Source of the DNA: an uncultured delta proteobacterium
GTDB lineage: Bacteria; Desulfobacterota; BSN033; UBA1163
Reading direction: 5' to 3'
NCBI GenBank assembly: GCA_963827685.1
Contig: CAWHBU010000006.1
Location: 288,001 to 352,000 of the forward strand
Length of the DNA: 64,000 bases
The notes beneath the pieces were generated by a model. That model worked only from the letters and a program-made list of their open reading frames with translations. It was not told the DNA's origin and searched no databases. The translations under genes and the position numbers were made by a program. Positions 35,215-35,287 of this stretch are shown here, in pieces. The number at the start of each line of letters is the position of its first letter. Position 1 is the stretch's first letter.

Positions 35215-35287
35215 TGCCCCCGCCGAGGCTCGAACTCGGTATTTGCCACTTAGCAGGTGGCCGTGATGTCCAATTCACTACGGGGGC
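35215..35287 (-). tRNA. Atypical class I tRNA, anticodon GCT (Ser) on an Arg-like body; CCA not encoded
   Basis: GCCCCCG TA GTGA ATTGGACA TCAC G GCCAC CTGCTAA GTGGC AAATA CCGAG TTCGAGC CTCGG CGGGGGC A; all four stems fully paired. Confidence 0.88.

Follow-up and report, generated by a model that had tools for sequence, protein, structure and literature searches.

A transposon-borne tRNA with an arginine-type body and a serine anticodon in an uncultured delta proteobacterium

Natural mistranslation that is genetically encoded is, to our knowledge, known from very few systems, including CUG decoding in yeast, tRNA-ProX and allo-tRNAs of uncertain use. The subject of this work is a 73-nucleotide (nt) tRNA gene that lies on an IS1-family transposon in the genome of an uncultured delta proteobacterium (assembly of 5.23 Mb in 14 contigs) and that combines an arginine-type body with the serine anticodon GCU. 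The window analysed is a stretch of 64,000 nt (C6:288001-352000), to which the positions below refer; homologous loci are denoted by L and a number.

Among the described systems, allo-tRNAs combine a geometry of 8/4 or 9/3 with a long variable arm and with serine or alanine identity, UAU being their commonest anticodon, and are encoded near toxin-antitoxin (TA) systems and a transposon-related open reading frame (ORF) (PMC5389517). The parts of that report that deal with activity describe irregular tRNAs from the vicinity of TA systems that are charged by histidyl-tRNA synthetase (HisRS) and yet insert no histidine in E. coli, and six allo-tRNA(UAU) variants without suppressor activity, two of which are toxic (PMC5389517). 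The closest case with proven function is tRNA-ProX (ProA, ProT and ProN) of Streptomyces and Kitasatospora, for which mistranslation has been demonstrated and which is accompanied by a dedicated prolyl-tRNA synthetase (ProRS) isoform (PMC10404621). Like the window tRNA, it joins one identity to another anticodon, and variants with A34 or with a residue other than U33 occur (PMC10404621, PMC11415595).

The window tRNA belongs with the identity-mismatched irregular tRNAs found near TA systems and transposons, among which its arginine-type 7/5 form with a GCU or ACU anticodon (hereafter RCU) is new. As in the allo-tRNAs and irregular tRNAs, in the sections of the reports that describe them (PMC5389517, PMC7609411), its anticodon conflicts with its body and it lies near TA and transposon genes. 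Unlike the allo-tRNAs, which are 8/4 or 9/3 tRNAs with a long arm and either serine or G3:U70 alanine identity, it is a 7/5 tRNA of arginine type with a short variable loop and C3-G70, a difference in geometry that had been pointed out in a first-pass annotation of the window and that the fold confirms. Unlike tRNA-ProX with its ProRS isoform, the window element carries no synthetase, and the swap proposed here is one between arginine identity and a serine anticodon. Our literature search returned neither an arginine-identity RCU tRNA nor an IS1-family tRNA slot or basic protein of the kind described below, although Figures S5-S7 of PMC5389517 might show kin.

Structure and identity elements of the window tRNA

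ARAGORN called a tRNA-Ser(gct) at 35214-35288 on the minus strand, and a local Rfam scan placed the tRNA family RF00005 at 35215-35287 from end to end (model positions 1-71 of 71), with 57.5 bits where the gathering score is 29 (E 9.6e-12). The cloverleaf is the minimum free energy (MFE) fold of the 73 nt (-32.7 kcal/mol, z -3.22), none of 200 shuffles being equally good, and all 21 stem pairs are intact and Watson-Crick throughout. They are contributed by the acceptor stem GCCCCCG/CGGGGGC (7/7 paired, with C3-G70 as pair 3:70), the D stem GUGA/UCAC (4/4), the anticodon stem GCCAC/GUGGC (5/5) and the T arm CCGAG-UUCGAGC-CUCGG. The D loop (AUUGGACA) has an A directly after G18G19, that is A20, the anticodon loop is CUGCUAA (G34, C35, U36, A37), the variable loop AAAUA has 5 nt, U15 and A48 are present, and the discriminator A73 is followed by a T7 run, CCA not being encoded. 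The canonical elongator features are in place as well (U8, A14, G18G19, U33, U54-U55-C56, A58, a 7-bp acceptor stem and a 5-bp T stem). Each of the features from which the first-pass annotation had argued, namely the cloverleaf, GCU, the 5-nt variable loop, A20, C35-U36 and A73, is therefore present in the sequence, and the gene occurs as a single copy in its genome. Run over the entire window with fast filters and the gathering threshold, Rfam in its default mode missed the tRNA; fast filters can lose good tRNAs.

According to the portion of PMC9976931 that treats bacterial identity sets, arginine identity depends on A20, C35, U or G at position 36 and A or G at position 73, A20 being the strongest element in E. 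coli, and serine identity rests mainly on the long variable arm. All four arginine determinants are found in the window tRNA, and the long arm and G73 of the serine type are absent. Its anticodon is one of those that read serine codons (NGA or GCU), with GCU reading AGC and AGU (AGY), and is not one of those that read arginine codons (NCG, YCU); only RCU anticodons keep C35 and U36 while reading a non-arginine codon. The tRNA and its relatives resemble the bacterial tRNA-Arg(CCU/UCU), the decoders of AGR, in the A20-type D loop (GGAUA/GGACA), C35, U36, A37, A or G at position 73 and the 5-nt variable loop. They differ from these at position 34, where G or A in place of C or U means that AGY (Ser) is read and not AGR (Arg), and the window gene differs further in being located on a mobile element and in its D stem, GUGA/UCAC against the usual GCUC/GAGC.

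The host genome has 49 tRNAs (ARAGORN), among them a long-arm tRNA-Ser(GCU) of 93 nt; the host tRNA-Ser genes measure 88-93 nt and all five Ser/Sec-type tRNAs have the long arm. Since the host set is already full, including a normal tRNA-Ser(GCU), the candidate is an extra tRNA, which shares with that tRNA-Ser(GCU) the anticodon GCU and the loop CUGCUAA. The host arginine tRNAs, five in number (ACG, CCG, UCG, UCU and CCU), have GGAUAGAGC in common. When the covariance model R1 of the RCU family was run on the host genome, the candidate scored 84.7 bits, tRNA-Arg(UCU) 79.5, tRNA-Arg(CCU) 75.6, tRNA-Arg(UCG) 70.0 and tRNA-Arg(ACG) 69.5 bits, and tRNA-Ser(GCU) was not among the 37 matches. This ranking supersedes a nearest-neighbour assignment of single family members, a weak signal in which an arginine tRNA came top for 7 of 15 members and a CAU tRNA was the top match of the window copy. 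In one relative (L038) the acceptor stem and D-arm are those of the host tRNA-Arg(CCU), bar one extra G in the host D-loop.

The host genome contains one arginyl-tRNA synthetase (ArgRS) gene and three genes of the PolyA_pol family, a family that includes CCA-adding enzymes. Of the 49 tRNAs found in the host, at least 46 carry the CCA in the gene; it is lacking from the candidate and from the host tRNA-Arg(CCU). Because the host has a CCA-less tRNA-Arg(CCU) of its own in addition to the PolyA_pol-family genes, maturation of such precursors appears feasible, and presumably lies within the capacity of the host.

The RCU family and the tRNA slot

The RCU family comprises 28 distinct members, 18 with GCU and 10 with ACU, of which 26 lie beside a transposase of the same family as that of the window and two beside a toxin-like/helix-turn-helix (HTH) module. 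In an alignment of 15 members, 95.9% of the base-pair cells hold standard pairs, against 35-49% in slid controls, and compensatory changes on both sides occur at 19 of the 21 pairs (82 double-change cells), none of 500 shuffles reaching any of these values. Selection on pairing, which the first-pass annotation had suspected from the perfect stems of the single copy, is borne out by these changes, as is its proposal of a compensated U15:A48 pair, given that positions 15 and 48 co-vary (most members have A:U, L038 and L008 have G:C, and the window has U:A). U8, A14, G18, G19, C35, U36, A37, U54, U55, C56 and A58 are invariant in all 15. When the 28 members were read by eye, A20 was found in 27, and the discriminator was A in 24, G in three and U in one. 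The gene is real and under structural selection.

Of 61 related genomes, three had a BLAST match to the tRNA (96-nt query), and of 14 genomes of the same genus none did; the exact 38-nt string of anticodon and T arm had no match in a collection of genome contigs. One of the three matches, L002, is likewise a short GCU tRNA; the transposase gene that follows it after 130 nt has 80% DNA identity with the one in the window. Transposase relatives occur in 27 of 401 genomes of the phylum; a further search gave 491 in species-representative genomes and over 544 in metagenomes, and from either set the 80 best matches were examined. The loci with this transposase and its inverted repeats (IRs) come from metagenome-assembled genomes (MAGs) labelled Thermodesulfobacteriota, Acidobacteriota, Aminicenantes, Zixiibacteriota, Chloroflexi, Ignavibacteria, Planctomycetes and others. 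We pooled 168 loci that included the N-terminus of the transposase together with 250 nt or more of upstream sequence, and looked for tRNAs on the same strand within 450 nt upstream. Such a slot tRNA was present in 52 of the 168 loci, one or two in each, giving 57 genes and 54 distinct sequences, and no tRNA was found in the other 116.

The anticodon contradicts the body in 44 of the 54 distinct slot tRNAs. Twenty-three are Arg-like RCU tRNAs (13 GCU and 10 ACU, one ACU having an expanded variable arm), and 21 are long-arm tRNAs of serine type (GGAG-type acceptor, Ser-type D arm, G73) that carry UAU (13), UAG (6) or CAA (2), and in no case a serine anticodon. The remaining ten have CGU (three, two with an Arg-like body), UGC (three, one Arg-like), UUA (two), UCC with U73, and an unclear CCG call. 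Because RCU is kept on arginine bodies and foreign anticodons are kept on serine bodies, the mismatch appears to be a selected property; the synthetase of the Ser-type slot tRNAs ignores the anticodon, according to the account of serine identity in PMC9976931. UAU is the commonest anticodon both in the described allo-tRNAs, which are reported from sediment and soil bacteria and sometimes stand in tandem, and in the Ser-type slot tRNAs. These UAU, UAG and CAA tRNAs probably represent the allo-tRNA class or a close one, and the IS1-family transposon may be the vehicle of allo-tRNA-like tRNAs of this kind. They were found at L007, L013, L037, L038, L040, L042-L044, L090, L127, L129, L131, L136, L142-L144, L149, L153, L170, L182 and L191, and two irregular tRNAs stand in tandem at four loci (L038, L144, L145 and L191).

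Five of the 28 RCU members lie beyond the filter of the pooled set, namely the window copy, L056, L083 and two GCU tRNAs from a search pattern that fixes RCU by design; this pattern matched in 6 of the 401 genomes of the phylum, and a reversed control pattern matched three times. The carriers with record titles include MAGs that bear the labels Thermodesulfobacteriota or 'delta proteobacterium', Candidatus Abyssobacteria, Candidatus Zixiibacteriota and Thermodesulfovibrionales. The first-pass annotation had reasoned that homologs with CCU or UCU would reduce the window copy to a one-off mutation or an assembly error. Searches that left the anticodon free gave 29 Arg-like bodies, of which 26 have RCU, two CGU and one UGC; none has CCU, UCU or another arginine anticodon, and with the two members from the RCU-fixed pattern the count is 0 of 31. 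On a tree of the 168 transposases the RCU elements are scattered, with 14 changes between RCU and its absence, 11 for the RCU group and five forced by well-supported branches, numbers that overstate turnover because the class without tRNA includes loci with too little upstream sequence.

A relative of the regulatory region is found on a metagenome contig (L134), in which positions 1497-1795 are about 90-100% identical to the window over the regulatory region and the acceptor stem. The acceptor stem and anticodon loop of the two tRNAs are identical, and about 25 differences are spread over the D arm, the anticodon stem, the variable loop and the T arm. Either the tRNA core has been swapped between elements or it evolves much faster than its flanks, the anticodon being kept; the mosaic pattern suggests an exchange of tRNA cores.

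Beside more distant transposases (about 50% identical) the slot holds a tRNA-like RNA in which G3:U70 and a tmRNA-like T arm are combined with a UUA or CUA anticodon loop. The genome of the window has a second, distant element of this sort (C3:1120782-1121597; L033 2351-2421, minus strand), with a transposase 52% identical and a slot RNA that has the same G3:U70 pair and T arm, a D region that is aberrant and UUA in its anticodon loop, and whose kin occur in L021, L022 and L023 (CUA in L023). By its features this RNA could be an alanine-accepting nonsense-suppressor-like or mini-tmRNA-like RNA. Ten tRNA-bearing relatives (L035, L036, L039, L008, L113, L040, L192 and L021-L023) have a Shine-Dalgarno sequence and an (A/G)UG-AGA-AGA mini-ORF 5' of the tRNA, about 230-340 nt upstream of the transposase, in contrast to 0 of 105 tRNA-less elements; the window does not have it. 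The mini-ORF is followed by an RNA of about 110 nt with three helices, compensatory changes seen by eye and no match to an Rfam family, and the two together might be an attenuator that senses AGA decoding.

The transposon and its toxin-antitoxin-type modules

The tRNA is carried by a probable IS1-family transposon of 4,969 bp (31903-36871), whose features are collected in Table 1. The first-pass annotation was right in calling the tRNA transposon-borne, but the carrier is this larger element and not the adjacent IS4-family one. The IRs match at 16 of 16 nt, at least three matches being reached in none of 100 shuffles of the window, and the same 16-mer flanks the transposase in loci of many phyla, where it is often exactly conserved. 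The outer flanks fuse into one receiver-domain reading frame (..YDL followed by VILDTMGVRGFDLL..). As the flanks rejoin in frame across the 8-bp duplication, the insertion appears to be recent. The interrupted gene (31556-31897 and 36872-37042, minus strand) encodes a response-regulator receiver domain and reads through the duplication as ..SFTYDL followed by VILDTMGVRGFDLLK...

Table 1. Features of the transposon and of the tRNA region, in window coordinates
Feature	Position	Strand	Evidence
tRNA gene, 73 nt, 7/5, GCU	35215..35287	-	ARAGORN, Rfam, MFE fold, family model R1 84.7 bits
Predicted sigma-70 promoter of tRNA, TTGACA-17-TATTCT	35348..35376	-	consensus scan, 10/12 matches, 60 nt upstream
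Palindromic operator-like site, core CACAATATTGTT	35356..35369	.	repeat D1 + palindrome I2, within tRNA promoter spacer
Second palindromic operator-like site CACAAATTTGTG	35402..35415	.	repeat D1 + palindrome I4, toxin-like/HTH operon side
Leader hairpin AGGCCUC-N12-GAGGCCU	35303..35328	-	from sequence; identical in L134
Terminator-like end: 3' part of T arm + acceptor stem, then T7	35208..35229	-	terminator scan
Gp49/HigB-like toxin gene, 97 amino acids (aa), divergent from tRNA	35489..35782	+	Pfam PF05973, E 1.7e-10
XRE-type HTH antitoxin-like gene, 159 aa	35760..36239	+	Pfam HTH_3, E 1.9e-9
DUF3467 gene, third of module	36236..36553	+	Pfam PF11950, E 1.2e-6
Small Lys/Ala-rich basic protein, 82 aa, just inside left IR	36558..36806	-	
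IS4-family insertion sequence (IS) (DUF4372 + DDE_Tnp_1, 403-aa transposase)	33870..35197	-	Pfam, genome copies
IS1-family DDE transposase, 277 aa	32920..33753	-	Pfam DDE_Tnp_IS1, NCBIfam IS1, annotated homologs
SocA/Panacea-domain antitoxin-like gene	32295-32852	-	Pfam PF13274, E 3.9e-23
123-aa ORF	31924-32295	-	no Pfam or NCBIfam family
Left IR GGTAGTGGGTCAGTTT	36856..36871	-	exact match
Right IR GGTAGTGGGTCAGTTT	31903..31918	+	exact match
8-bp target-site duplication CAAATCAT (+ strand)	31895..31902, again 36872-36879	.	

On the minus strand the element runs from the basic protein through the opposite-strand DUF3467, HTH and Gp49-like genes, the tRNA, the IS4 insertion and the transposase to the Panacea-domain gene and the 123-aa ORF. 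It resembles IS1-family elements with passenger genes in its single-ORF DDE transposase, which matches IS1-type profiles at the scores given below, its IRs starting with GGT, its 8-bp target duplication and its passengers; for its fixed tRNA slot upstream of the transposase and its conserved basic protein just inside the IR our literature search returned no description. The passenger-carrying IS1-family elements presumably correspond to the ISfinder subgroup named ISMhu11. The transposase scores 27.6 bits against Pfam DDE_Tnp_IS1 (cut-off 24.1), over a short stretch, and 57.9 bits against NCBIfam IS1, which is below the cut-off of 100; homologs in cultured bacteria, 52-59% identical, are annotated 'IS1 family transposase'. 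Its promoter, TTGACA-18-TATAAT, ends 6 nt before the ATG at the -10 element, so that the transposase mRNA would be near leaderless. This strong promoter (window 33754-33800, minus strand) has counterparts in L004, L006, L007, L009, L012 and others, the -10 element ending 6-9 nt before the ATG. The conserved palindrome GCTTGAGCGCTCAAG between the -35 and -10 elements suggests autoregulation of the transposase.

The IS4-family IS, 1.33 kb long, has six further copies in the genome (contigs C1, C2, C3 and C4; 99.3-99.9% identity). It inserted into the spacer of 120 nt that separates the tRNA from the IS1-family transposase, with TATAGCA duplicated at its junctions, and disrupted neither the T run of the tRNA nor the transposase promoter. 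The tRNA does not belong to this IS, since the six other copies stop at about 35197, 17 nt before the tRNA. Nor is the tRNA an integration site with a repeat of its 3' end, given that the right end of the element is the inverted repeat of the left and holds no copy of the tRNA 3' end.

The 82-aa basic protein carries the motif KNPAAVALGRLGGLKGG and has a homolog just inside the IR in all 13 listed RCU elements; it matches no Pfam or NCBIfam family and probably serves the transposon as a core accessory protein. At the corresponding place of a Mesorhizobium plasmid, matched by position and not by alignment, there is a 69-aa coding sequence annotated 'histone H1'. Between the transposase and the right IR, the Panacea-domain gene and the 123-aa ORF overlap by one base, and the latter is a candidate for a new toxin partner of the Panacea antitoxin. 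No synthetase-like ORF was found in the window element or in the 13 listed RCU elements.

The TTGACA-17-TATTCT promoter that the first-pass annotation had read upstream of the tRNA was recovered by our consensus scan. It shares a divergent region of 201 nt with the Gp49-like/HTH/DUF3467 operon, in which a 14-nt palindromic motif is present twice, 46 nt apart, both copies being invariant between the window and L134. The latter contig has the same Gp49/HTH/DUF3467 module with proteins 60-86% identical (86% for the Gp49-like copy), a nearly identical sequence over the upstream 200 nt, and a tRNA promoter identical in the -35 element and spacer, with TATCAT as the -10 element. The layout of a toxin-like ORF1, an HTH gene and an ORF3 divergent from a TTGACA promoter, AT-rich repeats, a hairpin and the tRNA recurs in L032, where an ACU tRNA lies inside a sister transposon, and in L208 and L210, where GCU tRNAs have no transposase within 1.5 kb. 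Hairpins analogous to that of the leader are found 5' of the tRNA in these three loci, and T runs 3' of the tRNA occur also in L036, L038, L039, L008 and L113.

The linkage of the tRNA to TA genes is real, for toxin-like/HTH modules adjoin RCU tRNAs in L032, L134, L208 and L210, and in the window the Gp49/HTH and Panacea modules and two transposases all lie within 3.5 kb of the tRNA. The HTH protein is 43% identical to that beside the GCU tRNA of L210 (E 1e-18). The Gp49-like toxin gave no BLASTP alignment with ORF1 of L210, which matches no Pfam family; our impression is that ORF1 is RelE/HigB-like. For ten ORFs preceding the tRNA in relatives, Pfam gave no more than sub-threshold hints of the HTH type. 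DUF3467 homologs hold the same position in other elements, and the Gp49-like/HTH/DUF3467 module occurs in at least 13 elements that have no tRNA, which indicates that the tRNA is an optional addition to the toxin-like/HTH module.

Possible function and alternative explanations

The sequence data establish the gene, its family, the transposon and the conservation of the mismatch, and it is the function of the window tRNA that we infer from them. We propose, regarding the chances for and against as evenly balanced, that the RCU family derives from AGR-reading (NCU) arginine tRNAs and that the window copy is a selected tRNA gene whose product would be charged with arginine and insert it for serine at AGY codons. 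In such a course of events the tRNA would be transcribed from its own sigma-70 promoter and transcription would end at the T run behind the acceptor stem. Because the palindrome in the promoter spacer recurs 46 nt away beside the operon, we suppose that the HTH protein may bind there and repress both the tRNA and the TA-type operon. RNase P, 3' trimming and CCA addition would mature the transcript, and the host ArgRS would charge it by way of A20, C35, U36 and A73. The charged tRNA would then compete with the long-arm tRNA-Ser(GCU) of the host at AGY codons, placing arginine for serine at a low or conditional level, from which a mobile element might gain through stress induction, addiction or conflict with other elements.

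Several observations weigh against this proposal. In 12 transposases from RCU elements, none of 78 AGY codons falls at an Arg-consensus column and 31 fall at conserved serine columns, with a mean arginine fraction at AGY columns of 0.016, against 0.013 in other transposases, and AGY codons show no sign of avoidance (23.6 per 1000 codons; 20.6 in transposases of other elements). That the element recodes its own genes, with AGY meaning arginine, is ruled out for the transposase by the absence of AGY from arginine columns. Since efficient Ser-to-Arg decoding would damage this transposase, decoding would have to be weak or conditional. The Ser-to-Arg reading of the first-pass annotation thus stands in all its sequence-testable parts, the arginine set and RCU being kept and the long arm absent, whereas the transposase argues against efficient decoding. 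C33 replaces the near-universal U33 in 5 of the 28 members (read by eye); rare residues other than U33 do occur in natural mistranslating tRNAs, as described in part of PMC11415595. Three relatives with the same body have CGU or UGC and lack C35 or U36, so that recognition by ArgRS cannot be the sole constraint, and a few slot tRNAs look cognate, such as the one with UCC and U73 (Gly). The A after GG, as read by eye, is also found in the host tRNAs for Trp and His, one CAU tRNA and Leu(UAG), and the preference of R1 for NCU-type arginine tRNAs is due in part to the anticodon loop, because the model was built from RCU sequences. Irregular tRNAs from a similar context, in the experiments covered by the relevant part of PMC5389517, were charged and left unused in E. 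coli translation, or were inactive. Every step beyond the DNA, that is expression, processing, charging and decoding, is inferred. Among the sequencing runs that contain window 35198-36900, none listed is an RNA run, and four DNA runs of one study contain parts of it. As side observations, four AGY codons at Lys-rich columns of the RCU-element transposases reduce to one shared column and one N-terminal position, and three serine codons of the small basic protein align, by eye, with Ser, Pro or variable residues.

The main rival to Ser-to-Arg decoding is a tRNA-shaped RNA, perhaps aminoacylated, that the ribosome does not use and that would serve the TA module or the transposon as a regulator, as a decoy that engages ArgRS or an enzyme targeting tRNAs, or as an amino-acid donor, with the anticodon loop as a protein-recognition element. 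We hold this, which the first-pass annotation had named as its alternative in the form of a decoy or toxic RNA, to be possible though rather doubtful. It draws on the precedent of the HisRS-charged, non-inserting tRNAs and the inactive or toxic allo-tRNA(UAU) variants (described in part in PMC5389517), on a transposase that shows neither avoidance nor recoding of AGY, on the C33 members, on the same body occurring with CGU or UGC, and on the tight linkage to a divergent toxin-like/HTH operon with which palindromes are shared. Yet the tRNA keeps a full decoding architecture (7-nt loop, A37, a covarying 5-bp anticodon stem and the G18G19/T-loop elements) that exceeds the needs of a protein-binding hairpin, and position 34 is a purine in 26 of 26 unconstrained members with C35 and U36, which recognition by ArgRS alone would not demand. 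Another explanation is that the gene matters only as a DNA or transcription element, either a terminator or insulator for the near-leaderless transposase or a recombination hot spot for cargo exchange. The tRNA is always the immediate upstream neighbour of the transposase promoter, several members have a T run behind the tRNA, the cores of the window and L134 tRNAs are swapped or far more diverged than their flanks, as cassette exchange would produce, and 116 of the 168 loci do without a slot tRNA; but an insulator needs no A20, G18G19, T-loop, 7-nt anticodon loop or RCU, two members have no transposase within 1.5 kb, and we consider this explanation improbable.

That the gene is a genuine short-arm tRNA-Ser(GCU), charged with serine by the host or by another factor and adding AGY capacity for the element, also strikes us as a poor prospect. 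The anticodon and the loop CUGCUAA are those of the host tRNA-Ser(GCU), the transposase has AGY codons at serine columns, and animal mitochondria offer a precedent in a short-arm tRNA-Ser(GCU) with a dedicated SerRS, mentioned in the part of PMC9976931 that concerns it. The window tRNA, however, has A73 instead of G73 and lacks the long arm that all five Ser/Sec-type tRNAs of the host possess, its body scores as Arg-like and not Ser-like, the carrier elements have no synthetase, and ACU, found in 10 of 28 members, is no normal bacterial serine anticodon. Least credible of all, and in our estimate very improbable, is a functionless gene, a decayed or accidental copy of tRNA-Arg(CCU) in which C34 turned into G by chance, or the product of an assembly error. 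The single copy in the genome, its absence from the 14 genomes of the same genus in the BLAST search with the 96-nt query, and the missing CCA, which nearly all host tRNAs have encoded (at least 46 of 49), would fit such an origin, but the tRNA-Arg(CCU) of the host lacks CCA too. The 21 intact pairs, the strong covariation and the conservation of promoter, palindromes and hairpin in L134 speak for a maintained gene. The homolog census, with 27 further distinct RCU members from MAGs labelled as several phyla and from metagenomes, contradicts an accident, and divergence among the sequences excludes one recent clone.

Beyond the single gene, and with more doubt than conviction, we can envisage a multi-phylum transposon toolkit of identity-swapped tRNAs, with an arginine body reading serine AGY codons, serine bodies with isoleucine or leucine anticodons, and Ala-like G3:U70 bodies with stop anticodons. 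In such a toolkit the window member would be induced together with the TA operon by way of operators common to both, and programmed, conditional rewriting of AGY would be a weapon of the mobile element or a stress switch, the tRNA itself being a kind of 'toxin'.

If the RCU tRNA of the window is charged with arginine and reads AGY, it would be the first example with arginine identity of natural, encoded mistranslation, the first such case on a fully canonical 7/5 tRNA, and the first with a clear vehicle, an IS1-family transposon with conserved ends in MAGs labelled as several phyla. Its apparent wiring to a TA-type operon provides a concrete hypothesis of conditional expression, and the window tRNA represents a defined, cloneable system for the problem of 'irregular tRNAs', open since 2017. 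Should it play no part in translation, it would still be a tRNA mimic that a widespread transposon conserves in a fixed cargo slot, and as such unexplained mobile-element biology.

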